DNA of 41,102 nt from a virus. The DNA lies in UHGV virus genome UHGV-0210063. One strand, given 5' to 3'. Below the pieces are notes generated by a model. It did no database searches and was not told the DNA's origin. It saw nothing but the letters and a program-made list of their open reading frames with translations. Positions 1,603 to 41,088 of the stretch are shown here, piece after piece; position 1 is the first letter of the stretch; the number at the start of each line of letters is the position of its first letter. A program made the position numbers and the translations under genes.

Positions 1603-2070
1603 TTATCTGAGACATTGCTCACGAATATATAGCTGTGCCCCTTCCAGTTGCTTCTGCATCGTCATCAACCGTTCTCTGAGGGTGAAATAATCCCGTTCAG
1701 CGGTGTCTGCCAGTCGGGGGCTGGTTGCATTATCCACGCTGGTGGGTCCGGTGGCTTCACGCACGGCTGCGGAGCAACTGGCATTGACCCGCAGGCGCTT
1801 ACGACCAGCGGCAACATCAGCGCGCAGAGTTTCATTTTCAGCTTTCGCATTGGCTAATTCTCTCGAGTACTTTGCATCGAGCGCAGCAACATCACGCTGA
1901 CGCTGTTGCATGTCAGCGATGGTGGCAGTCGCCTGCTTCAGCTCACTGACTTTTTTATCACGCTGTTCTTTGTAGGCGATGGCGTTATCACGGTAATGAT
2001 TGACCGCCCACGACAGGCAGACGATGGTGCAGATAACCAGAGTATAAATAATCGCTGCGACTCTGCTCAC
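1603..2070 (-). CDS. Rz: Spanin inner-membrane subunit Rz
   Basis: Close match to lambda Rz ([19 protein letters not shown]...[14 protein letters not shown]); probable GTG start overlapping endolysin stop; ORF track extends to 2085 with a TTG start. Confidence 0.85.
1665..1850 (-). CDS. Rz1: Spanin outer-membrane lipoprotein Rz1, embedded in Rz in another frame
   Basis: 61 aa, [20 protein letters not shown] lipobox, proline-rich, ends [12 protein letters not shown] as in lambda Rz1. Confidence 0.85.
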
Positions 2071-9736: not shown

Positions 9737-10813
9737 TTACCCCCTGAAGCCCGGCGGAATTTCGTTATCCGGTTCAGAAATATGATTCACACAACGCTGG
9801 TTGTTCGTGCCGCTTACCGGGAGCAACCAGGGGTTCTCAAAATTCCGGTCCGGTCCAAAAAACGTCGTCGCTCGCTGAACAAATTCCGTTCCCGTTTTCC
9901 CGGTAGCCGCCAAGTATCTTGCGTAACGCCTCACGCCATCCAGCATGGCCTCTGGTGGCACCCCCTCGCGTAATCTGGCCTTCCAGGCACTGAAAGCGGA
10001 TTTCTTCGGGTTTGCTCCGGCACGCAACGGGTACTCCCGCCAGACCTGTTCGAACACATCCGGATAATCCACTCGTCCCACAGACTGCCCGGTGCTTTCC
10101 GGGACTACCCGATCGGCTTCCCGCTGAATGGCGGAATCGGCTTCAGGCTGCTGCAGTTGGTGTGATTGCTCCGGCCTTGCGGTCATCACCTGCTGCACAG
10201 CGCCCGAATCGGCTTTCAGCGCATACGCTGAATCGGCTTCCGGTGTCGTGCCTGCTGGCTGACCAGGATTGACGGTCTGAACATCCCCTGCCTGGTTCGT
10301 GGCGTTTTTTACGCCATGAACCATAGTGTTTTGATCTTCTTGATCTGTATCTTTATCTGTATCTTTATCTGTCGTGACTCGTCGTGACATGTGCGTGACA
10401 TTTCGTGACGCGCCGTGACAATCGCCATTTTGTTCCCGCTTTCTTTCCCTCTCTCGCTGCGCCCTCTTGCGCTCTGCAGGAGATTTTGCGGTTTGCGAAA
10501 TATTGCCGTTGTCCTCTTTAAGCACCTGGCGTTTTTCCCATCCAGTGATTAAATCACCATCAAGTACCCGCCCCTGCATCGTCTGCAAAATTGAATCAAT
10601 TACCTCTTCTGTCACGTCGAGCGCACTTGCCAAATCTTCTGTCGTGACATCAATGTGACCTCGCGTGACATTTCGTGACGCGCTCACCAGGAGGTGGATA
10701 TACACTGCCATCACTGTTGCAATTGGCTGCCCTGACACCCTGGCAATTGTTCGCCACTTAGGGTCATTTGGCATGTCATGCCATAATCTGAGCCAGGCGT
10801 TAGCCATACTCAC
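9737..10813 (-). CDS. Replication initiator, O-like (YdaU/DUF1376-like) containing the origin iterons
   Basis: 358 aa; N-terminus WLRLWHDMPNDPKWRTIARVSG; internal iteron clusters; position after cro/CII-like genes. Confidence 0.65.
   Translation of the reverse strand: MSMANAWLRLWHDMPNDPKWRTIARVSGQPIATVMAVYIHLLVSASRNVTRGHIDVTTEDLASALDVTEEVIDSILQTMQGRVLDGDLITGWEKRQVLKEDNGNISQTAKSPAERKRAQRERERKREQNGDCHGASRNVTHMSRRVTTDKDTDKDTDQEDQNTMVHGVKNATNQAGDVQTVNPGQPAGTTPEADSAYALKADSGAVQQVMTARPEQSHQLQQPEADSAIQREADRVVPESTGQSVGRVDYPDVFEQVWREYPLRAGANPKKSAFSAWKARLREGVPPEAMLDGVRRYARYLAATGKTGTEFVQRATTFFGPDRNFENPWLLPVSGTNNQRCVNHISEPDNEIPPGFRG
10343..10378. repeat. Tandem 12-bp repeat (ATCTGTATCTTT, about 2.5 copies)
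   Basis: Direct tandem copies; encodes DKDTDKDTD on the minus strand. Confidence 0.7.
10371..10420. repeat. Iteron cluster A (5 CGTGAC repeats at 10-11 bp spacing), putative ori
   Basis: CGTGAC at 10373, 10383, 10394, 10404, 10414. Confidence 0.65.
10611..10682. repeat. Iteron cluster B (3-4 CGTGAC repeats plus one inverted copy), putative ori
   Basis: CGTGAC at 10643, 10664, 10674, GTGAC at 10655, inverted GTCACG at 10611; shares a 20-bp exact repeat GCGTGACATTTCGTGACGCG with cluster A. Confidence 0.65.
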
Positions 10814-10878: not shown

Positions 10879-11304
10879 TCAATGCACTGCCACAGCATTT
10901 CCTGCCGGGCCACCACGGTTCATCTGATTGAAACCGGCGATTGCCACTGCGACAAAATCATCGGCGTCTCTCACCAGTCGCTCCCGCGTCTCCACCAGCT
11001 CCCGAAAATAAGCTGAACTGTGGCTACGCATTCTGGCCACCAGCAAAGGTGGCATTGCCTTTTCGATCGCTGGTAACAACGCCTGAATTTTTTCAACTGC
11101 ATCAGGGGTGTCTTTCTCTACCCAGCGGAAAATTTTCTGGGTATTGCGAGCCAGGGCTTCCGGATGGCTGTCGTCGTACAGTTCAGGAAACGTCATACCC
11201 AACTCAAAATAAGCCTGGGTTATTCCAGCTGCCGGAACTTTTTCGCCATCAGGACGCGCCCAGGCATTCATCGCCATGCGGATGTGTTCATGCTTGATTT
11301 TCAT
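10879..11304 (-). CDS. YdaT-like protein (CII-like regulator of Rac-type prophages)
   Basis: 141 aa from internal Met (MKIKHEHIRMAMNAWARPDGEK...); directly follows the cro-like gene. Confidence 0.55.
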   Translation of the reverse strand: MKIKHEHIRMAMNAWARPDGEKVPAAGITQAYFELGMTFPELYDDSHPEALARNTQKIFRWVEKDTPDAVEKIQALLPAIEKAMPPLLVARMRSHSSAYFRELVETRERLVRDADDFVAVAIAGFNQMNRGGPAGNAVAVH

Positions 11305-11530
11305 GAATCCCCCCTTGGTTAGAAGGCGGATTATGATCAGAACCGGGAATGACAACCGTCGGTATGTGTAACTCATATTTGAGCGCCCCGGCAGTGACTG
11401 CCTGAATTAGCAACGCCCATTTCCACGGAACCTCTTCCCCCCACATGCTGACTGTGGTTTTTGACGTTCCTAGAGCTGCGGCTGTTTTAACAACTCCGCC
11501 AAAATAGCCTAATACTTCTGATTTTTTCAT
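11288..11530 (-). CDS. Cro-like / YdaS-like HTH regulator
   Basis: 80 aa MKKSEVLGYFGGVVKTAAALGTSKTTVSMW...; GGAG ribosome-binding site; divergent from cI. Confidence 0.65.
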   Translation of the reverse strand: MKKSEVLGYFGGVVKTAAALGTSKTTVSMWGEEVPWKWALLIQAVTAGALKYELHIPTVVIPGSDHNPPSNQGGIHENQA

Positions 11531-11621
11531 GAGTCGCTCCATAAAACTGAACGCCAAAAGTTTAATAATCAAAACCAAAGAAAGTCAAGAAACAAAACCA
11601 TCTGTGTTTTAAAATCAAAAC

Positions 11622-12260
11622 ATGAGCAAGCAAACAATATCTGAACGCATAACCCAACGTATGCATGCGCTAAACCTGAAAGGCAAAGACCTTGTCAATG
11701 CCACTGGCGCATCAAAAGGCTCCGTAAGTCAATGGATGAACGGTGGAGGAGCGCCGTCCTCGCGTTACATAAGTTCACTGGCAAAAATATTGAAAGTAAA
11801 CGAAAATTGGCTTCTTAATGGAGGAGAGTTAAATACAGGTGATTCGCTTGATCTATCTTTACCGCCGATAAAAACGGTTCCGCTACTATCACTTCAGCAG
11901 GCAGCAAGCTGGAGTGATTATATGAAAAATTCCTCAATAACCTCTTGTGTGCAGCTTGTCGGAGAAATCCCGGCCAATACCTTTGCAGTTGTTCTAGAGA
12001 GTGACAGTATGTCAACATCTGGTGGGGGAGTTTCCATCCCAAATGGTTCAACAGTTTTTGTTGATCCCGATCGAACCGTACAACCAGGAAATATTGTCCT
12101 TGCCTTACCCAAAGGGACCACAACACCTGTCATTCGTAAACTGGAGATAGAAGGGCCGGATATTCTTTTAGTCCCCACGAATCCTCGCTACCCTTCAATT
12201 ATGCTGGATGATCTATCTTGCATATTGGGCGTATGCTTTAAAATTCAACAAGATATTTAA
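11622..12260 (+). CDS. CI-like repressor (HTH plus S24 LexA-type peptidase domain)
   Basis: 212 aa; N-terminal HTH (GASKGSVSQWMNGG) and C-terminal domain; divergent from cro-like gene. Confidence 0.8.
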   Translation: MSKQTISERITQRMHALNLKGKDLVNATGASKGSVSQWMNGGGAPSSRYISSLAKILKVNENWLLNGGELNTGDSLDLSLPPIKTVPLLSLQQAASWSDYMKNSSITSCVQLVGEIPANTFAVVLESDSMSTSGGGVSIPNGSTVFVDPDRTVQPGNIVLALPKGTTTPVIRKLEIEGPDILLVPTNPRYPSIMLDDLSCILGVCFKIQQDI

Positions 12261-12867: not shown

Positions 12868-13086
12868 ATGCAGAAACGAGAACCCGTCATCATCGCGCCA
12901 GACTATACCGATGATGAACTTTATGAGTGGATGCGCCAGAAAATTAATGCAGCGCAGGATCTGAAATGGGCCAATGAAGCCAGGGCTAAGCAGGCTGAAA
13001 ATCTGTCCGCTCTGGAGCAGGATATCACCAGGCTGGAAAAAGCAGCGGCATTAAGCATTGCCAGAATGATTACATACCCGCGTTAA
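12868..13086 (+). CDS. ydfC: YdfC of dicB operon
   Basis: 72 aa MQKREPVIIAPDYTDDELYEWMRQKINAAQDLKWANEARAKQAENL... Confidence 0.8.
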   Translation: MQKREPVIIAPDYTDDELYEWMRQKINAAQDLKWANEARAKQAENLSALEQDITRLEKAAALSIARMITYPR

Positions 13087-13221
13087 TAGCTAACCAACGA
13101 AGCTAAGGTTGGTAATTAAGGAGTTCTCCACGGGTAAGGTGGAGTGCGTGCGCCGGACACGGGTGAGCATCCGGCACGTTCTTTAAAAATCTGGATAGTC
13201 CCAACTTATTTAAACGGTTAA

Positions 13222-13653
13222 TTATCTTGAGTTCATCCAGAACTTATTATTGCAAGCGGGGCAAAAAGTACGAAAATGAGCATCAAGGCGCATTATTTCC
13301 ATTGGCTGCAGTACAGATATTACCTTTTTTCCAAAACATTGTGGGCAAAGATGCACTGTTATCTCGGTATCGCCTATAAATTGCTTCTTGGAATACACAA
13401 GAGTTCCAGAATCAAGCTTGTTAAGTTTGTAACCTTCCGCCTGTTGCTGAAAGTCTTCTATCTCTGCAATTTTTGCTTTGAGAGATGCGGCTTCTTCCTG
13501 ATAAGAGCGCACCATCTCAATGAGCGATACGCATTCAAACTGAACAGACGTAAGTTTTGAAAGCATATCGCTGACAGCGGAATTTATCTCAGTTTGAGTT
13601 TTGGCATTCAGAATACCCTTTGCCATTACCGCAGTTTCTTTGATTGCCGACAT
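13222..13653 (-). CDS. Hypothetical coiled-coil protein with C-terminal zinc ribbon; antisense moron inside the dicB operon
   Basis: 143 aa from ATG at 13653 (MSAIKETAVMAKG...); two CxxC pairs (CPQC, CPAC); AT-rich; ORF track extends to a GTG at 13797, but a promoter lies inside that extension. Confidence 0.6.
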   Translation of the reverse strand: MSAIKETAVMAKGILNAKTQTEINSAVSDMLSKLTSVQFECVSLIEMVRSYQEEAASLKAKIAEIEDFQQQAEGYKLNKLDSGTLVYSKKQFIGDTEITVHLCPQCFGKKVISVLQPMEIMRLDAHFRTFCPACNNKFWMNSR

Positions 13654-13689
13654 TGCTGCTGAGAACTCAACTATCACGTTACTTACTCT

Positions 13690-13746
13690 TCTCGTTGTTG
13701 GGGATATCCGGATTATACAAATTTCTTGTTGTTGGGGAATAACAGG
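13690..13746 (-). promoter_or_regulatory. Candidate promoter of the antisense moron with flanking direct repeats
   Basis: Extended -10 TGTATAAT (plus-strand 13712..13719) flanked by direct repeats TTGTTGGGGA at 13694..13703 and 13728..13737. Confidence 0.4.
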
Positions 13747-13988
13747 AACCACCTCGCCTGATGTGGTTAAAAGCAGGCACACAACACGAAAGCGCACGGC
13801 GAGGCTGTTAGCTCATAAATGGTCTGTCGTTAAATTTTCGTCGACCGTGCGCTCTCGGTTGTGGCACTCCGCGAAATGGCGCGACGGTAAGTATGGCGGG
13901 GTTATTCCTTCCCCGTTGAGGACACCGGGTTGTCAGGTTGACCATACGCTTAAGTGACAACCCCGCTGCAACGCCCTCTGTTATCAAT

Positions 13989-14041
13989 TTTCTGGTGACG
14001 TTTGGCGGTATCAGTTTTACTCCGTGACTGCTCTGCCGCCC
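13989..14041 (+). ncRNA. dicF: DicF small RNA (ftsZ-targeting sRNA)
   Basis: 53-nt UUUCUGGUGACGUUUGGCGGUAUCAGUUUUACUCCGUGACUGCUCUGCCGCCC followed by T-run; matches recalled E. coli DicF. Confidence 0.85.
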
Positions 14042-14215
14042 TTTTTAAAGTGAATTTTGTGATGCGGTGAATGCGGCTAAGCGCACGCGGAACAGTTAAA
14101 ACCAAAAACAGTGTTATGGGTGGATTCTCTGTATCCGGCGTTAATTGTTAACTGGTTAACGTCACCTGGAGGCACCAGGCACCGCATCACAAAATTCATT
14201 GTTGAGGACGCGATA

Positions 14216-14404
14216 ATGGAAACGTTATTACCAAACGTTAATACGTCTGAAGGCTGTTTTGAAATTGGCGTCACTATCAGTAACCCTGTATTTACTGAAG
14301 ATGCCATTAACAAGAGAAAACACGAACGGGAGTTATTAAATAAAATATGCATTCTTTCAATGCTGGCCCGTTTACGTCCGATACAAAAAGGATGCTGGCA
14401 ATGA
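14216..14404 (+). CDS. dicB: Cell division inhibitor DicB
   Basis: 62 aa METLLPNVNTSEGCFEIGVTISNPVFTEDAINKRK...; internal start of ORF 14111..14404. Confidence 0.85.
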   Translation: METLLPNVNTSEGCFEIGVTISNPVFTEDAINKRKHERELLNKICILSMLARLRPIQKGCWQ

Positions 14405-14589
14405 ATCCAGTATTTGCACTTATTCTGACGGTTTTTCTTGTTTCCGGAGAGCCAGTTGATATTGCAGTCAGTGTTCACAGAACAATGCAGGAATGTATGG
14501 CCGCAGCAACCGAACAGAAAATTCCAGGCAACTGTTATCAGGTCGATAAAGTTATTCACCAGGATAACGAAATCCCGGCAGGATTTTAA
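14392..14589 (+). CDS. ydfD: YdfD-like small membrane protein
   Basis: MLAMNPVFALILTVFLVSGEPVDIAVSVHRTMQECMAAATEQ...; overlaps dicB stop. Confidence 0.7.
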   Translation: MLAMNPVFALILTVFLVSGEPVDIAVSVHRTMQECMAAATEQKIPGNCYQVDKVIHQDNEIPAGF

Positions 14590-14682
14590 AACAGCACCGT
14601 AATAAATATCCAGTTTCATTCTTATATGTCAGCAATGGCAGAGATTTGTTCACCCTTAAATCTGTGATGAGGTTTATCAATA

Positions 14683-17167: not shown

Positions 17168-17371
17168 ATGAGCAGCTTATTTTTAACCGAAGATGAATTG
17201 CTAATATTAACGGGCTGCAAATATGCAAGCCACCAGCGAAAATGGTTAATGGAAAACGGGCTTCCGTTCTATACCAATCGTAGTGGCAAACCGATTGTCA
17301 GCCGGGATCTATTTACCTGCAATAAAACTTTACCACCACGCGAGGTAGAGCCGAATTTTGGTGCGATCTGA
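17168..17371 (+). CDS. xis: Putative excisionase (DUF4224-like)
   Basis: 67 aa directly upstream of and overlapping int start; LTEDELLILTGCKY...NRSGKPIV pattern. Confidence 0.55.
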   Translation: MSSLFLTEDELLILTGCKYASHQRKWLMENGLPFYTNRSGKPIVSRDLFTCNKTLPPREVEPNFGAI

Positions 17372-18396
17372 TGGGAAGACGAAGGAAAAATCCTGAACAC
17401 GAAAAATTACCTCCAAATGTATACCCAAATAAATATAGTTATGTATGGAAACCAACATCCAGAGAATCTGTCACACTAACCGCCATCAAGGATGGTTTAG
17501 CTGCTTTATGGAAAAAGTATGAGGAAACTGTAAATAATCGCGATCGTGCAATGACATTCGGTCGCTTGTGGGAAAAATTCCTCGCCAGCGCCTATTACAG
17601 TGACCTTAGTCCAAGAACACAAAAAGATTATCTGCAACATCAAAAAAAGTTGCTTGCCGTATTCGGTAAGGTACCAGCGGATTCCATAAAACCAGAACAC
17701 ATCCGTCGATACATGGACAAAAGAGGGGAGCAGAGTAAAACGCAAGCCAACCATGAAAAAAGCAGTATGTCCCGTGTTTACAGTTGGGGGTATGAGCGAG
17801 GGTACGTCAAGGCTAACCCATGTGCAGGTGTAAGTAAATTCAAGGCCAAAAACCGCGAACGATATGTAACCGACAAAGAATACCAGGCAGTATTAAGCGT
17901 TGCACCTCTTCCTGTTTTTATCGCAATGGAAATTGCCTATCTGTGTGCAGCGAGGGTTTCCGATGTGTTATCGCTGAAATGGGAACAGATTGGAAACGAC
18001 GGGATATTCATCCAGCAAGGGAAAACCGGAAAAAAACAGATAAAAGCATGGAGTCCACGATTACAGGCAGCGATCGAAAAAGCAAAACAGTTACCAAAAT
18101 CTGCCTATGTGATCAGCAATCAATACGGCAACCGATATATGTACAAAGGCTTTAACGAAATGTGGGTAGAAGCAAGAAATCGTGCTGGAAAAATTTCAGG
18201 TATTTTAACCGACTTCACCTTTCATGATCTGAAGGCGAAAGGAATTTCAGACTATGAAGGAAGCAGCCGGGATAAGCAACTTTTCTCTGGTCACAAAACC
18301 GAAGGGCAAGTGCTAATCTATGACAGGAAGGTTAAAGTTTCACCAACACTTGATGTCCCGTTACCTGAAAATATTCCAAGAAAATATTCCAAGTAA
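17371..18396 (+). CDS. int: Tyrosine-type site-specific integrase
   Basis: 341 aa; C-terminal catalytic region (HDLKAKG...GHKTEGQVLIYDRK); adjacent to tRNA-Ser fragment. Confidence 0.85.
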   Translation: MGRRRKNPEHEKLPPNVYPNKYSYVWKPTSRESVTLTAIKDGLAALWKKYEETVNNRDRAMTFGRLWEKFLASAYYSDLSPRTQKDYLQHQKKLLAVFGKVPADSIKPEHIRRYMDKRGEQSKTQANHEKSSMSRVYSWGYERGYVKANPCAGVSKFKAKNRERYVTDKEYQAVLSVAPLPVFIAMEIAYLCAARVSDVLSLKWEQIGNDGIFIQQGKTGKKQIKAWSPRLQAAIEKAKQLPKSAYVISNQYGNRYMYKGFNEMWVEARNRAGKISGILTDFTFHDLKAKGISDYEGSSRDKQLFSGHKTEGQVLIYDRKVKVSPTLDVPLPENIPRKYSK

Positions 18397-35565: not shown

Positions 35566-36771
35566 TTACGCCGCTGCAATCTTCAGCAGTTTGATGGCCT
35601 GCGAATCGACCAGCATCCCGCCGGTGCGCTTGGTGGTATAAAAACCGACAAACGGTTTATTGGTGTACGGGTCACGCAGAATGCGGGTGCCGATACGGTC
35701 AACGATGGTGTAACCCCGTTTGAAGTTACCAAATGCAATGGCTTTCGCATCAGCGGCGATATCCGGCATCTGTTCGTTTTCAGCGATACCGTAACCCGCC
35801 AGAGAGGACGGCTGCCCCAGTTCCAGCCCCGGACGCCACAGATAGTTACCCTCGGTGTCTTTCAGCAGACGGATGGCAAACAGGCTGTTGTTGTTCATCA
35901 TGAACTTCGCGCCAGTGCGGTGTGCCTTTCGCAGCGTGTAAATCAGTTTGATAATGGCGTCTGCGGTCACCGCAGTCGCGTCGCCGGATACAATATGCTG
36001 AAGTTTGCCGAACGCCCGGACCTTATCGGTTTCATCCGTGGATTCATACGCCAGGAACCCTTTCGGCTTCTTGGTACCATCGCCGGTGGTAAAGGCAATT
36101 TCTTCCTGTTCGGCAAATTCGGTTGCCAGCTCGCTGTTGATCCAGGCCTCCACGTTGAAAAAGGCATCATCCAGCATTTTCTGGGTGGCCTGCGGGTTAC
36201 CGTAGATTTCCCCCATGAAAGGTTCAATCAGCCCCAGTTTTGAGGTGGCAGTCTGGGAGCGCGCGTCAGTCTCGCCAACCCATCCGGAATCCGTGCCGCC
36301 CAGATTCACCAGTTTTTTGTAGTCGGAACCACCAACGGTGATCACCGTGGCTTCCTGACGCATCACCACTTCATCTTTCAGCAAGGTCAGAATGTTGCGA
36401 TCCAGCGCTTCCGGCACGGCATAGCCACCGTCTTCATCGGTGCCCACCTGTAATGCCTTGCGCTCCAGATCGCGCAGACCATCTTCACGGCCTTTACGCA
36501 GGAAGCCCACAAACGCTTCTTTATGCTCGGTGGCCAGTTTATTTTGCGCACCACCTGCCGGACGTTTCAGCTCAAGCAGCTCTTTTTCAAGGTCGCTTTT
36601 GAGATTTTCCAGCTCGCTGAGTTTTCCGTTCAGGGTTTCCACCTGCCCGGCAAGTTTGCCTTTTTCCTGCTCAATCGCCTCAACGCGCTTGTCGTTCTTT
36701 GCTTTGAAGTCGTCAAACTTCTGCTGCAGCTCCTGCGCGACCTGTTCGACATCTTTAATATCAACCGCCAT
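35566..36771 (-). CDS. Major capsid protein, HK97 family
   Basis: 401 aa; N-terminal coiled-coil delta domain then HK97-fold-like region; follows prohead protease. Confidence 0.85.
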   Translation of the reverse strand: MAVDIKDVEQVAQELQQKFDDFKAKNDKRVEAIEQEKGKLAGQVETLNGKLSELENLKSDLEKELLELKRPAGGAQNKLATEHKEAFVGFLRKGREDGLRDLERKALQVGTDEDGGYAVPEALDRNILTLLKDEVVMRQEATVITVGGSDYKKLVNLGGTDSGWVGETDARSQTATSKLGLIEPFMGEIYGNPQATQKMLDDAFFNVEAWINSELATEFAEQEEIAFTTGDGTKKPKGFLAYESTDETDKVRAFGKLQHIVSGDATAVTADAIIKLIYTLRKAHRTGAKFMMNNNSLFAIRLLKDTEGNYLWRPGLELGQPSSLAGYGIAENEQMPDIAADAKAIAFGNFKRGYTIVDRIGTRILRDPYTNKPFVGFYTTKRTGGMLVDSQAIKLLKIAAA

Positions 36772-36785
36772 CGTATTTCTCCTGA

Positions 36786-37472
36786 TTAGAAGTTCAGATT
36801 TTTCAGTGCATTCAGTGCAGAGCCCACATCCTCAGCGTCGCGCAGGGACAGTGCGCCATAGCCCCCGGCCATGAATGCTTTGGCCTGGGTACGGGAGAGT
36901 CCGACATCACGCAGGACTCTTTCGATTTTTTTCTGTTCGGGGATTTCCCCGCGGGCCAGTGCGTTCTTGACGTCGCTGATCCGCGCCTCGTCGTTAGACG
37001 GGAATGTCACCAGACTGACTTCCCAGAGGTCGATTTCTTTCAGCAGAAAGGCTTCTTTCGTCCGGTCGTATTCCCAGTCCTTCAGGACGTACCCAATAGA
37101 AAGGCCGGTTAACGAACCGGCCTTCATGTGTGCATGTGCGCGTTTTGCCAGGGGATCATCATCAATGAGCAACCGCCCCCTGACGTAAAGCCCGACATCG
37201 TCTTCCTTCATTTCGGTGTAAACACCGATGGGCTCATCCATGCGGTGCTGCCAGAGCAGCGCAGGTAACGCTTTTCTGTCACTCCACGCCCGCAGGGAAG
37301 CAGCAAATGCCCCGGACATCACCACATCATCGTGGCTGTCCTTTACACCAAAGACGGAGCCATACCCTTCAAACTCACCGGAGTCACTGACAGATTTCAG
37401 ACTCAGCGGTACATCAAGACGTTGTTTCGTCTGCATTGGCGTTATCCTTCTGCTTACCGGCTTTACTGCCAT
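36786..37472 (-). CDS. Prohead protease (HK97 family)
   Basis: 228 aa between portal and capsid; FEGYGSVFG...D...GAF pattern. Confidence 0.8.
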   Translation of the reverse strand: MAVKPVSRRITPMQTKQRLDVPLSLKSVSDSGEFEGYGSVFGVKDSHDDVVMSGAFAASLRAWSDRKALPALLWQHRMDEPIGVYTEMKEDDVGLYVRGRLLIDDDPLAKRAHAHMKAGSLTGLSIGYVLKDWEYDRTKEAFLLKEIDLWEVSLVTFPSNDEARISDVKNALARGEIPEQKKIERVLRDVGLSRTQAKAFMAGGYGALSLRDAEDVGSALNALKNLNF

Positions 37473-38655
37473 CGGAGGGTTTCGTGGTCATGTTCATCGG
37501 TGTGAGATAGACATCACCACCGGGACGTGGATTCATATCTTCCAGGTCGCGGCAGTCATTGGGAGAGTAAATTCCCCAGTTGATCCCGGTGGCGTAGGCT
37601 TCAAAACGGGACTTCATATCCCCGCGCAGTAACGCCCCGGCGTTAAATTTGGCGTAATAAACGCCCTGCTTACTTTTTCGTACCAGTCCGGTGTTGATCC
37701 GCTGTTCGATGCGGGTCAGATACGGCACCAGTGAATAGTTGATAAATCCCAGCCCCAGCTCTTCGATATTGTTGAAGGTGGCGCGATCGGTGTTCTGCAC
37801 CATGTGCAACGGCACCCGGAACAGACGACAGATTTCTTCAAGCTGAAACTTGCGGGTTTCCAGGAACTGGCTGTCCTCGGCGTTCAGCGCCATCGACTTC
37901 CAGTCCAGCCCCATCTCAAGGATCATCGGGCGGTGAGCATTGCCAAGCCCGGTGTGACGCTCCTCAAAATCTTTCTTCAGGCGCTCATAAGCCTGATCCG
38001 ACAGCGTCTGTTCTGTACGCAACACACCGGACGTCACCGCACCATTGCTGAACAGTCTGGCCCCGTGCTCTTCGGTCGCTGCTGCCAGCGATATTGCCTC
38101 GCGGGCATAGGCGATGGGATTCAGTCCCACCAGACCGTCCAGCGTCAGCGTGCGCACATGCCAGATATCTTCCTGGCTCAGTACATCCGTGGAACCGTCC
38201 GGGAATGTGACCTGATAGACCGGCTCCCAGCGACTGTTAAGCTTCGGTACCACACAACCGGGATCGACGGGCAGCAGTTCAGCCACTTCGCCAAATGCTT
38301 TCACTTTGTAGGCGTAAAAGTTTCCCCTCAGGCACAGACAGGTGACCACCAGCTCCCAGAACTCCTGCGGCGTCATATAGCCATTGGGATGCGTGGAGAT
38401 CAGCTTATGCAGACGTTCGCCGGTGGCCCTCTGTTTCAGGCTGCCGTTCAGGTGATACAGATTGCAGGGCAACATCCCGACCGACTCTGCCAGCACTCTG
38501 ACGCAGGAAAAAACCGCCGTCAGTCGCATGGCCCGCTGACTGCTGATCTGCTTTCCGGTATAGGTGTCGTAAGACAACCCGATGGCATCCGCCAGCTCTG
38601 CTGGCGTGGTCACCGGCGCGTCACTTTTTCGTTGAAATAATCCCGAAAAGAACAC
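37414..38655 (-). CDS. Portal protein (HK97 family)
   Basis: 413 aa between terminase large subunit and protease. Confidence 0.85.
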   Translation of the reverse strand: MFFSGLFQRKSDAPVTTPAELADAIGLSYDTYTGKQISSQRAMRLTAVFSCVRVLAESVGMLPCNLYHLNGSLKQRATGERLHKLISTHPNGYMTPQEFWELVVTCLCLRGNFYAYKVKAFGEVAELLPVDPGCVVPKLNSRWEPVYQVTFPDGSTDVLSQEDIWHVRTLTLDGLVGLNPIAYAREAISLAAATEEHGARLFSNGAVTSGVLRTEQTLSDQAYERLKKDFEERHTGLGNAHRPMILEMGLDWKSMALNAEDSQFLETRKFQLEEICRLFRVPLHMVQNTDRATFNNIEELGLGFINYSLVPYLTRIEQRINTGLVRKSKQGVYYAKFNAGALLRGDMKSRFEAYATGINWGIYSPNDCRDLEDMNPRPGGDVYLTPMNMTTKPSDGSKAGKQKDNANADETTS

Positions 38656-38848: not shown

Positions 38849-40606
38849 TTAAAGCGAGCGGATGCCCACGCTGACCAGATGTTCAGACAGATCCAGCTCC
38901 GGTTCACCACCATTGACCAGCATCCGGCTCATTGCTGTAAACATCGCAACAGGGCCGTCGATTTTGGCTTCCTGCGTGGATTTATTCGGGAAGATATTGT
39001 CGTTTTTGTCCGGTTTTACCGTAACGTTAGACATCATCCAGTTCATGACCGGATGATTGCTGTGATGGAAACGCCCGGCATAGACCAGTGATTCCGTTTC
39101 CTTCATGGCCTCTGACAGATTGCGAACCGTCTGCGGAACCTCCACCAGCGGTATCCCTTCTTCAGCCAGTGCCAGGCTGAACTGCATCGCGCTCCACGGG
39201 TCAAATCCCAGTTCCCTGAGGTTTTCACCACCAATCCATTCCAGTAAGTCACTTTTTATCTGAGCATGATCGATAACATCACCATCCGTCAGAATCAGCT
39301 TATCCATCTCCGCCCACTTCCGGTAAAGTTCTGCCTGCTGCCGCGAGCATCGTTCCAGCCGTCCTTCCGGAAGCCAGAATTTAAAATCGGCATGAACATG
39401 CCCGTTATCCGTTCGCCAGAGTTTTGCCGCCGCACAGATATCAATCTTATGAGCAAGGTCAACGCCGACCCACATGGGATACGTTTTCAGCTCATGTCGT
39501 GGGGCAATGTATTCGCACTTCTCCCACTTAATCATGTCCATCCAGGCAGACTCTGCTGTTACCCACACATTCATGTGTTTGGTAAAAAAATTCACCCGCG
39601 CAGAGACCTGTTCTTTCGCTTTTTTCGCCAGGCGACGCAGATCATCCCAGCGTTTACAGATGCCCAAGCCGGGATTCGCTTTCTGCCAGACCGTTTCATC
39701 AAACGGATCATCTCCCTCATCGAGGGTGTAAATAATCGCAAAGTAGGAGTCGTCTTTTACCGCGCCCTCCACGTCGCTGTTATAGCCACGCAATACCTTG
39801 ATGGCGTAATCACGCTGCTCGTAACAAATCCCTTCCTTGTTAAACCCTGCCGTGGTGATACCAAATAAAAGGGACTGCAGACGGGCACCGGTTGCCGTTT
39901 CCAGAACGTCCCACACGTCACGGGTTTTATGTGCATGCAGCTCATCAATAATGGCGCAGTGGATGTTCAGACCATCTAGGTTGTTTGCATCCGAAGAAAG
40001 CGGTTCAAATTTTGATGCGCTCTGCTCCTGGTAAATCGCCAGCTTGTTGAAATCAAACAACCGCCCGAGTGTCGACCGGGCTTTTCTGACCATATTTTTG
40101 GCGTCTTCAAACACGATTCTGGCCTGGTCACGCGTGGTTGCGGCTGAATACACCTCAGCTCCGCCTTCACCATCTGCCCCCGTCATATACAGGCCGATAC
40201 CCGATGACAGAGTTGATTTTGCGTTTTTACGGGCGACTTCGTTGTACGCCGTCCGGAACCGGCGCACCATCACCGGACGTCCGCTGCCATCGCTGCGCAT
40301 GACAACTTCCCCGGTCTCTTCATTGACCAGCGGAATGACAAAACCAAAAATATTAATGAGGATAAATACATGCCAGTCCATCAACTCAATGGGCTGGCCT
40401 GCCAGCGCCCCTTTTACATGAGGCACAAATTTGTAGAAATTCAGGATGTGCTGCGCACGGGGTTCACTGAAATAAATCCCCCGCTCTTCGCCGTACTTCA
40501 GATCATCAAGAAAACGCTGGCAGGCCAGGCGGACAAATTCGCCAGCAACAATTTCTCCTGCAACAACACGTTCGGCGTAGCGGATCCCGTCAGCCACTTT
40601 TGCCAT
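38849..40606 (-). CDS. Terminase large subunit
   Basis: 585 aa; ATPase and nuclease regions; position after terS. Confidence 0.9.
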
Positions 40607-41088
40607 CAGTCTCTCGCTTTTAAAAGCTCCGCCAGCGGATCAACATCATCCGGTCCGGCGATATTTACTTTAGCCCGGCTTGCCGGTGACATACCAAACT
40701 CTGCAAGCATTGCCCGGATCCGCTTCCAGGCATCCGCTTTCATTGCCGCCGCGGGGTGCGCCTTAATCAGTACATCACCGCTCTGCGTTTCCGTGCGGTA
40801 GGTATACCCCTCAACATCGAGTGTTTCGCAGTGATGCCGATATTCGGTGTAGGCTTCCACCAGCAACTCGAGCGCACGCGCATCAAGCTGAGAAATGATC
40901 CCTTCCGCATTCAGCTCTTCCGCCATTCGCCTGAACCAGTACTTCCCCTGAGCCCCTAAATGCTGCGGAATTTTAGGAAGACCTTTTTCATCCTTTTTAG
41001 CGGTTTTTTTGTGGTCTTTAACGGGGCGCTTTGAGGGGTTGCCTCGAATCAAATGCAGGCGTGGCGGGGTTTTCGGAGGTCCTGACAT
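40606..41088 (-). CDS. Terminase small subunit
   Basis: 160 aa basic N-terminus; immediately upstream of and overlapping terL. Confidence 0.8.
   Translation of the reverse strand: MSGPPKTPPRLHLIRGNPSKRPVKDHKKTAKKDEKGLPKIPQHLGAQGKYWFRRMAEELNAEGIISQLDARALELLVEAYTEYRHHCETLDVEGYTYRTETQSGDVLIKAHPAAAMKADAWKRIRAMLAEFGMSPASRAKVNIAGPDDVDPLAELLKARD

Follow-up and report, generated by a model that had tools for sequence, protein, structure and literature searches.

Which function may be served by a gene that is read against the direction of the operon in which it lies? In the virus genome UHGV-0210063 (41,102 nucleotides, analyzed over its whole length and referred to as the window), the genes ydfA-ydfB-ydfC-dicF-dicB form an early operon, and between ydfC and dicF a gene is embedded on the opposite strand, approximately 1 kb from the S24 repressor gene. 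A reading of the DNA letters alone (the original prediction) had described it as a minus-strand open reading frame of 143 amino acids without a recognizable family, and had suggested a phage-exclusion function from its position. Profile and fold comparisons now place the protein in a family: the gene product quite probably belongs, as a divergent member, to the Rip1 family, which consists of small anti-phage proteins encoded by prophages. By analogy, a role of the window protein in defense is inferred.

Family and predicted fold of the antisense gene product

The open reading frame 13222..13653 was present as described and ends with ...CPQC...CPAC...NSR*. The true start is most likely not the ATG at 13653 but a GTG 24 nt upstream at 13677, giving a product of 151 amino acids. 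This start is favored because the RefSeq entry WP_001546009.1 begins there, and because the eight additional residues are conserved in homologues as an N-terminal octapeptide MI(A/V)E(F/L)(S/T)AA (e.g., MIAEFTAAM...). The octapeptide is preceded at a fixed distance by a conserved GAGAAGAG/AAGAG, and (A/G)AGAG was found at the same distance from the start codon in all aligned loci.

Searches with the window protein identified it as a full-length member of phrog_1244 (E 7e-47). The relative with a solved structure is Rip1 ("ring interacting pore 1") of Escherichia phage HK446; its cryo-electron microscopy structure together with the small terminase of Enterobacteria phage T6 was released on 2026-02-04 as PDB entry 9oox, which contains 12 Rip1 chains. 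The Rip1 chain of this entry is 100% identical to HK446 gp37. With the single window sequence, a phmmer search against 9oox Rip1 gave E 4.8e-7, and a profile of 67 homologues gave E 6e-32 with residues 14–160 of the 164 Rip1 residues covered. BLASTP analysis against HK446 gp37 showed 23% identity over 141 residues (E 1e-10), a value comparable to the 28% found between Rip1 and HkaP of phage HK620. Judged by these comparisons, the gene product is of a known kind, a divergent member of the already described Rip1 family. The family is large, as a search of 1.84 billion cluster representatives (clusters at 50% identity) retrieved 3872 representatives at E <= 1e-3, nearly all of 145–180 amino acids.

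An AlphaFold model built with the alignment of the 67 homologues (pLDDT 88.8) comprised helices at residues 2–24 and 28–80, followed by strands and a four-cysteine zinc knuckle, in agreement with the coiled coil and subsequent zinc ribbon of the original prediction. Comparison of the model with the PDB using Foldseek gave significant matches to 9oox_L and 9oox_M only (E 1.6e-7 and 3.6e-7, probability 1.00, TM up to 0.62/0.72), and a fold search of BFVD revealed one unnamed viral relative and nothing further. The cysteines of the predicted zinc ribbon (C111, C114, C139, and C142) are invariant in the 67 sequences and align with CAQC...CHRC of Rip1. The LQP (L-Q-(P)) and Y-x-L motifs are invariant or nearly so.

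Matches to Pfam, NCBIfam, and PADLOC models (SLATT_5, zinc ribbons, and coiled-coil families) were sub-threshold and mutually inconsistent, and were not used for the assignment. SLATT_5, a SMODS/SLOG-associated effector with two transmembrane helices, scored 17 bits in Pfam (cut-off 29.5) and 17.9 bits in NCBIfam (cut-off 60). The PADLOC RTasSLATT match reached an E value of 0.005 only, and the window protein has no transmembrane segment where two helices are expected. The JGI label "predicted nuclease with TOPRIM domain" was rejected, as Pfam finds no TOPRIM domain.

The original prediction implied a reading frame conserved among related prophages. The frame was found intact, and the cysteine ligands invariant, across the 67 diverse homologues. 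Together with the ratio of nonsynonymous to synonymous change (ω ~0.1–0.25), the conservation of promoter, ribosome-binding site, and start codon, the confident AlphaFold model, and thousands of full-length relatives, this argues strongly against a decaying, nonfunctional passenger of a mosaic prophage. Such a passenger, to which the missing curated family model and the unsupported nuclease label of the source might point, is hardly credible.

The cassette, its upstream module, and the dicB operon

The ydfC–dicF gap, originally put at about 900 bp, was determined to be 903 bp, versus 340 bp in the Qin prophage of Escherichia coli K-12. Pairwise alignment revealed that a block of ~590 bp (window ~13178..13766) stands where K-12 has ~26 unrelated bases; the flanks of the block are near-identical to K-12, and dicF is identical. 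The same open reading frame was looked for in the 340-bp ydfC–dicF interval of K-12 Qin and was not found there. Thus, the insertion relative to K-12 that the original prediction had expected is present as a discrete cassette, which may reflect a gain by the phage or a loss by K-12. Among 5426 complete E. coli genomes, the cassette was found in 77 and its flanks in 4691. The GC content is 0.39–0.42 over the gene and 0.49–0.52 in ydfC and the dicF precursor region (~0.50 on either side). The dicB/ydfD region downstream is equally AT-rich, and low GC is accordingly not peculiar to the cassette. A moron in the sense of Hendrix is an autonomous gene unit in a phage operon, characterized by discrete insertion, different composition, and a promoter and terminator of its own. 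The cassette is discrete with respect to K-12, is lower in GC, and has a conserved extended −10 element as predicted promoter; a canonical terminator is lacking in this allele, whereas a terminator follows the gene in the PhiR29_2, Citrobacter, and Edwardsiella alleles.

Upstream of the start codon, the extended −10 element TGTATAAT lies between two copies of the direct repeat TCCCCAACAAC (reading TTGTTGGGGA on the plus strand), as described in the original prediction. Within the window alone, the repeat pair is not beyond chance, as two or more matches were obtained in 22 of 100 shuffles with one mismatch allowed. The repeats are considered significant because they are conserved at fixed positions in nine loci from Escherichia, Citrobacter, and Edwardsiella, namely at −61 and −27 from the start codon, 33–34 bp apart and flanking the −10 element. 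At the position of the latter, a −10-like hexamer (TATAAT, GATAAT, GTTAAT, or TAAAAT) was present in all nine loci. In HK446 and HK620, both repeat copies read TACCCCTACAG in place of TCCCCAACAAC. By this comparison, the predicted promoter of the window gene is homologous to the promoter module of HK446 rip1.

Conservation of the upstream module far exceeds that of the protein encoded behind it. Between the window and a divergent allele at the dicB site (L010), the segment comprising TGCCTGCTTTTAACCACATCAGGCGAGGTGG..., the two repeats, the −10 element, and the ribosome-binding site is ~97–100% identical, whereas the proteins share only 30% identity. The same pattern was observed for HK446 rip1 and HK620 hkaP, with an almost identical upstream module of ~100 bp (L008 3370..3461 and L004 3385..3482) and proteins that are 28% identical. 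Autoregulation by binding of the protein to the repeats was considered and is disfavored, since near-identical repeats serve proteins with only 28–30% identity.

Two further motifs coincide with the boundaries of the cassette versus K-12. On the 5′ side, TGCCTGCTTTTAACCACATCAGGCGAGGTGGTTCC is near-invariant in the E. coli dicB-site alleles, PhiR29_2, HK446, HK620, Citrobacter, and Edwardsiella. On the 3′ side, ATCCAGATTTTTAAAGAAC follows the stop codon in the window, in L009 (a second divergent allele at the dicB site) and L010, and in the PhiR29_2, Citrobacter, and Edwardsiella alleles, with the consensus ATCCAGATT(G/T)TTAAAGA(A/G)C across the enterobacterial clade. An RNA structure as the basis of the 5′ motif was not supported (fold z +0.7 versus shuffles; few substitutions, none of them compensatory), and a DNA-level element is more likely. 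The positions of all features are compiled in Table 1.

Table 1. Position of the antisense gene, its cassette, and surrounding features in the window
Feature	Position	Strand	Description or basis
Putative Rip1-family coding sequence	13222..13677	-	151 amino acids from GTG, stop included; RefSeq WP_001546009.1, phrog_1244, 9oox match
N-terminal module, codons 1-72	13462..13677	-	small-residue-rich helix 2-24 and most of long helix 28-80 (AlphaFold)
C-terminal module, codons 73-151	13222..13461	-	end of long helix, beta region, predicted zinc ribbon Cys111/114/139/142, LQP motif
Shine-Dalgarno-like GAGAAGAG	13686..13693	-	8 nt upstream of GTG; read from sequence
Direct repeat 2 TCCCCAACAAC	13694..13704	-	-27 from start codon, around predicted transcription start
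Extended -10 TGTATAAT	13712..13719	-	predicted transcription start near 13705; read from sequence
Direct repeat 1 TCCCCAACAAC	13728..13738	-	-61 from start codon, over -35 position
5′ boundary motif TGCCTGCTTTTAACCACATCAGGCGAGGTGGTTCC	13745..13779	-	near-invariant across alleles; upstream sequence unrelated
3′ boundary motif ATCCAGATTTTTAAAGAAC	13178..13196	-	just after stop codon; absent from K-12
Whole cassette, absent from K-12 Qin	13178..13766		K-12 alignment and count in E. coli genomes
GC-rich hairpin, 11 bp	13148..13177		3′ end of antisense gene; shared with K-12 Qin (alignment)
ydfC	12868..13086	+	left flank, early operon; window open reading frame list, RefSeq annotation, K-12 alignment
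dicF small RNA	13990..14041	+	right flank; Rfam RF00039, 76.7 bits, E 2.3e-16
dicB	14216..14404	+	RefSeq annotation transferred from locus L001
Replication gene	9737..10813		window gene survey
cro-like gene	11288..11578		window gene survey
S24 repressor	11622..12260		window gene survey
RecE-like exonuclease, 808 amino acids	14683..17109		window gene survey
Integrase	17371..18396		window gene survey
Tail genes	19-35 kb		window gene survey
HK97-type capsid protein	35566..36771	-	window gene survey
Portal	37414..38655	-	window gene survey
Large terminase	38849..40606	-	window gene survey
Small terminase	40606..41088	-	window gene survey

The original prediction had the antisense gene converge on the dicF/dicB transcript. 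Transcription of the gene would indeed be head-on to the operon transcript running from ydfA towards dicB, but not directed onto dicF itself. DicF can be produced only from an operon transcript that passes through the cassette.

At the 3′ end of the gene, the GC-rich hairpin folds on the minus strand with −24.7 kcal/mol (z −2.6). It is common to the window and K-12, which is compatible with either a gain or a loss of the cassette. No U tract follows on the minus strand; on the operon strand, the hairpin is followed by GTTCTTTAAAAA in the window versus TGACAG in K-12. The cassette thereby creates an arrangement (13148..13196) that looks like a weak intrinsic terminator ahead of dicF and that could alter the output of DicF and DicB. 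The generic promoter/terminator scan did not call the hairpin as a terminator.

These observations bear on whether the gene acts mainly as a regulator, with antisense transcription or nucleic-acid binding by the zinc ribbon modulating the dicB operon via DicF and DicB. Zinc ribbons often bind nucleic acids, the gene lies head-on to the operon between its promoter-proximal genes and dicF, and the cassette adds the T-rich tail GTTCTTTAAAAA after the operon-strand hairpin. A mainly regulatory role is nevertheless very improbable, as the family also occurs in loci without dicF or dicB (HK446, HK620, DMS3, PhiR29_2, Citrobacter, and Edwardsiella) and lies for the most part away from dicB operons, purifying selection acts at the protein level over the full length, and a homologue of the protein binds to a ring of phage protein. 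If the operon is affected at all, this is more likely incidental, or serves to shut off the gene upon induction.

Two side observations were made in the dicF–dicB region. A sub-threshold match to the Rfam family STnc100 was found at 14039..14248 on the plus strand (39.1 bits versus a gathering threshold of 47, E 3.4e-6), spanning the dicF terminator to the dicB start. Furthermore, a minus-strand open reading frame of 180 amino acids (14077..14619) overlaps dicB and ydfD in antisense orientation; it is probably spurious because RefSeq leaves a near-identical locus unannotated there.

Allelic halves and genomic contexts

Comparison of the window gene with an allele of 85% identity (L011) revealed two halves with different histories. 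In codons 2–72, the synonymous sites are saturated (pS 0.73, pN 0.31), whereas codons 73–151 are almost identical (pS 0.15, pN 0.016). In both halves, ω was ~0.1–0.15, and a value of ~0.1–0.25 was obtained versus a divergent allele, indicating at the sequence level that purifying selection acts along the entire protein. Two N-terminal types (A and B) and two C-terminal types (1 and 2) were found in all four combinations: A1 in the window, B1 in L011, A2 in P0005, and B2 in L009. In Edwardsiella, the N-terminal type B was found fused to a further C-terminal type. The two halves meet within the long helix, at a conserved LKAKIAE stretch. Alleles exchange the C-terminal half, which is hypervariable, its tail and the loop separating the two CxxC pairs included. 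By sequence comparison, the N- and C-terminal halves are thus shuffled between alleles under purifying selection.

The surroundings of the alleles at this site also vary. In E. coli Z1324SEC0014 (L002), which carries the same rip1-like allele, an antisense gene of 66 amino acids annotated as "ECs_2282 family putative zinc-binding protein" (1790..1990) takes the place of ydfA/ydfB between the repressor gene and ydfC. In L009 (1659..1868) and L010 (1661..1846), an antisense open reading frame of 61–69 amino acids lies immediately downstream of the divergent rip1-like allele. In both loci, ydfC is replaced by other genes, and L009 additionally has relBE upstream of ydfA.

Homologues of the window gene were antisense to their neighboring genes in all eight contexts inspected, with those of lambdoid prophages located beside the immunity region. 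HK446 rip1 lies between N and the anti-restriction/cIII genes; HK620 hkaP and the HK630 homologue are likewise antisense to their neighbors, and in PhiR29_2 and the Citrobacter and Edwardsiella prophages, the homologue lies directly beside the S24 repressor gene. Gene 25 of Pseudomonas phage DMS3 is antisense between a gene for a DNA-binding protein and the large terminase gene. The window itself appears to be the entire genome of a lambdoid phage, with the usual map inverted.

As far as the literature was checked, the location in the dicB operon, the highly conserved promoter module, whose repeats lie at −61 and −27, and the shuffling of halves are new.

Proposed mode of action and comparison with known systems

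The suggested phage-exclusion function is supported by the full-length homology to Rip1, by the annotation of HK620 hkaP as "putative superinfection exclusion protein," and by the occurrence of the cassette in 77 of the 5426 genomes. In a meeting report (PMC12908700), 12 copies of HK446 Rip1 are described on 11 terminase subunits and a pore is suggested; a 2026 preprint counts Rip1 among the systems by which the small terminase subunit is sensed (bioRxiv 10.64898/2026.04.30.721860).

Several points weigh against assigning a Rip1-like function to the window protein. The mechanism of Rip1 itself rests on the title of a PDB entry, the meeting report, and a single sentence of the preprint. With 23% identity to the characterized Rip1, the target and even the activity of the window protein could differ. 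Neither PADLOC 2.0.0 nor Pfam nor NCBIfam contains a model for the protein. No hydrophobic transmembrane segment was identified (maximum Kyte–Doolittle mean of 1.14 over 19 residues), so a pore, if any, must come from oligomerized amphipathic, small-residue-rich helices. A generic sigma-70 scan does not call the promoter site, as TGTATAAT is combined with a poor −35 region, and neither a generic scan nor folding revealed a canonical terminator 3′ of the gene on its strand.

Some of these points would also fit a protein of the Rip1 fold that acts in exclusion or abortive infection but has a different trigger (e.g., the portal or another oligomeric ring) or a different effector step (e.g., a block of packaging instead of a pore). 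The low identity to Rip1, the missing transmembrane segment, the hypervariable and swapped C-terminal half, as expected for changing specificity, and the name "ring interacting," which is broader than terminase, are all compatible with such a protein. The only experimental anchors of the family are, however, the complex with a small terminase and the suggested pore, and nothing in the analysis points to another target. A different trigger or effector step is thus regarded as unlikely, and membership in the Rip1 family with a Rip1-like mode of action remains preferred.

Based on the analogy to HK446 Rip1, the following sequence of events is proposed. In the lysogen, the early operon ydfABC-dicF-dicB would be repressed, and the antisense gene would rely for its transcription on the extended −10 promoter that it has on the opposite strand. 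The product of 151 amino acids would consist of a small-residue-rich N-terminal helix, a helix of ~50 residues, and a head of β-structure and zinc ribbon. This head would recognize a ring-shaped packaging protein of the infecting phage, which in the case of HK446 Rip1 is the small terminase. Approximately 12 copies would then assemble with the ring as template, and the clustered N-terminal helices may damage the membrane by forming a pore or otherwise stop replication, so that the superinfecting phage fails. For the window protein, a Rip1-like activity, the phage protein sensed, and a working promoter are all inferred.

The antisense embedding of the gene also suggests how a prophage might avoid triggering its own defense: upon induction, head-on transcription would silence the gene before the phage's own terminase accumulates. 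The small terminase of the window showed no sequence similarity to the T6 terminase chain of 9oox, a result that is uninformative on self-targeting either way. Taken together, the locus may tentatively be read as a portable cassette delimited by boundary motifs, with the concertedly changing repeats as a possible operator, an N-terminal half for assembly and effector function and a C-terminal half for ring sensing that are recombined for retargeting, and an antisense switch providing self-immunity; the cassette could in addition throttle DicF/DicB. This combined scheme is doubtful as a whole.

With this assignment, a "hypothetical protein" that few E. coli prophages carry (77 of the 5426 complete genomes) becomes a candidate anti-phage gene that is amenable to testing and has a structurally solved relative. 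With ~3900 clusters at 50% identity, the Rip1 family is extensive, and it has a fixed antisense niche beside the prophage immunity region, the dicB operon included. The allele series at a single site, with four combinations of N- and C-terminal halves and with alleles of only 30% identity behind a ~97% identical promoter, represents a natural experiment for assigning phage sensing and killing to one half or the other. For studies on DicF and DicB, it is relevant that in strains carrying the cassette the operon transcript has to cross an opposing predicted promoter. The conserved expression module, the concerted repeats, the modular recombination, and the previously unremarked location are possibly new parts.

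Classical lambdoid exclusion genes at the same map position are sieB of lambda and P22 and rexAB, which are expressed by the prophage near the immunity region and cause superinfection to be aborted or excluded. SieB and RexB are integral to the membrane. The window protein lacks a transmembrane segment, and no sequence or fold similarity to such genes was found in the Pfam, phrog, PADLOC, and Foldseek-PDB searches. With TerI and Avs1-3, the proposed mode of action would share a trigger by a phage DNA-packaging protein, as stated in the preprint (10.64898/2026.04.30.721860). The Avs proteins differ in being large STAND NTPases that sense the large terminase (same preprint), and TerI and Avs1-3 are unrelated to the window protein of 151 amino acids, to which they show no homology.

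Closer relationships were found within the family. DMS3 gene 25, D3112 orf25, and the JBD30 homologue of Mu-like Pseudomonas phages (casadabanviruses) are members with ~24–26% identity (E 3e-7 to 6e-9). DMS3 gene 25 is antisense to its neighbors like the window gene. In contrast to the latter, the DMS3-type genes lie away from the immunity region at the large terminase gene, are GC-rich, and do not share the promoter module. HkaP of HK620, HK629, and HK630 belongs to the same family (phrog_1244; ~30% identity by tblastn, E 1e-12) and its gene occupies the same antisense position in the pL operon, but has a promoter module of the HK446 type, unlike that of the window; a literature search for hkaP gave only unrelated matches and no experimental data.

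Rip1 of HK446 itself differs from the window protein in its longer N-terminus and in its C-terminal tail, which the latter lacks. The repeats read TACCCCTACAG in HK446 and TCCCCAACAAC in the window, and rip1 is located between N and ral/cIII rather than between ydfC and dicF of a Qin/Rac-type dicB operon. The likeness comprises full-length homology, the same predicted fold, the CxxC...CxxC and LQ(P) motifs, and a similar size (151 versus 164 amino acids). HK446 is, moreover, a lambdoid temperate phage in which rip1 lies antisense in the early-left operon beside the immunity region; its promoter module is homologous and likewise has the −10 element between direct repeats at −61 and −27.

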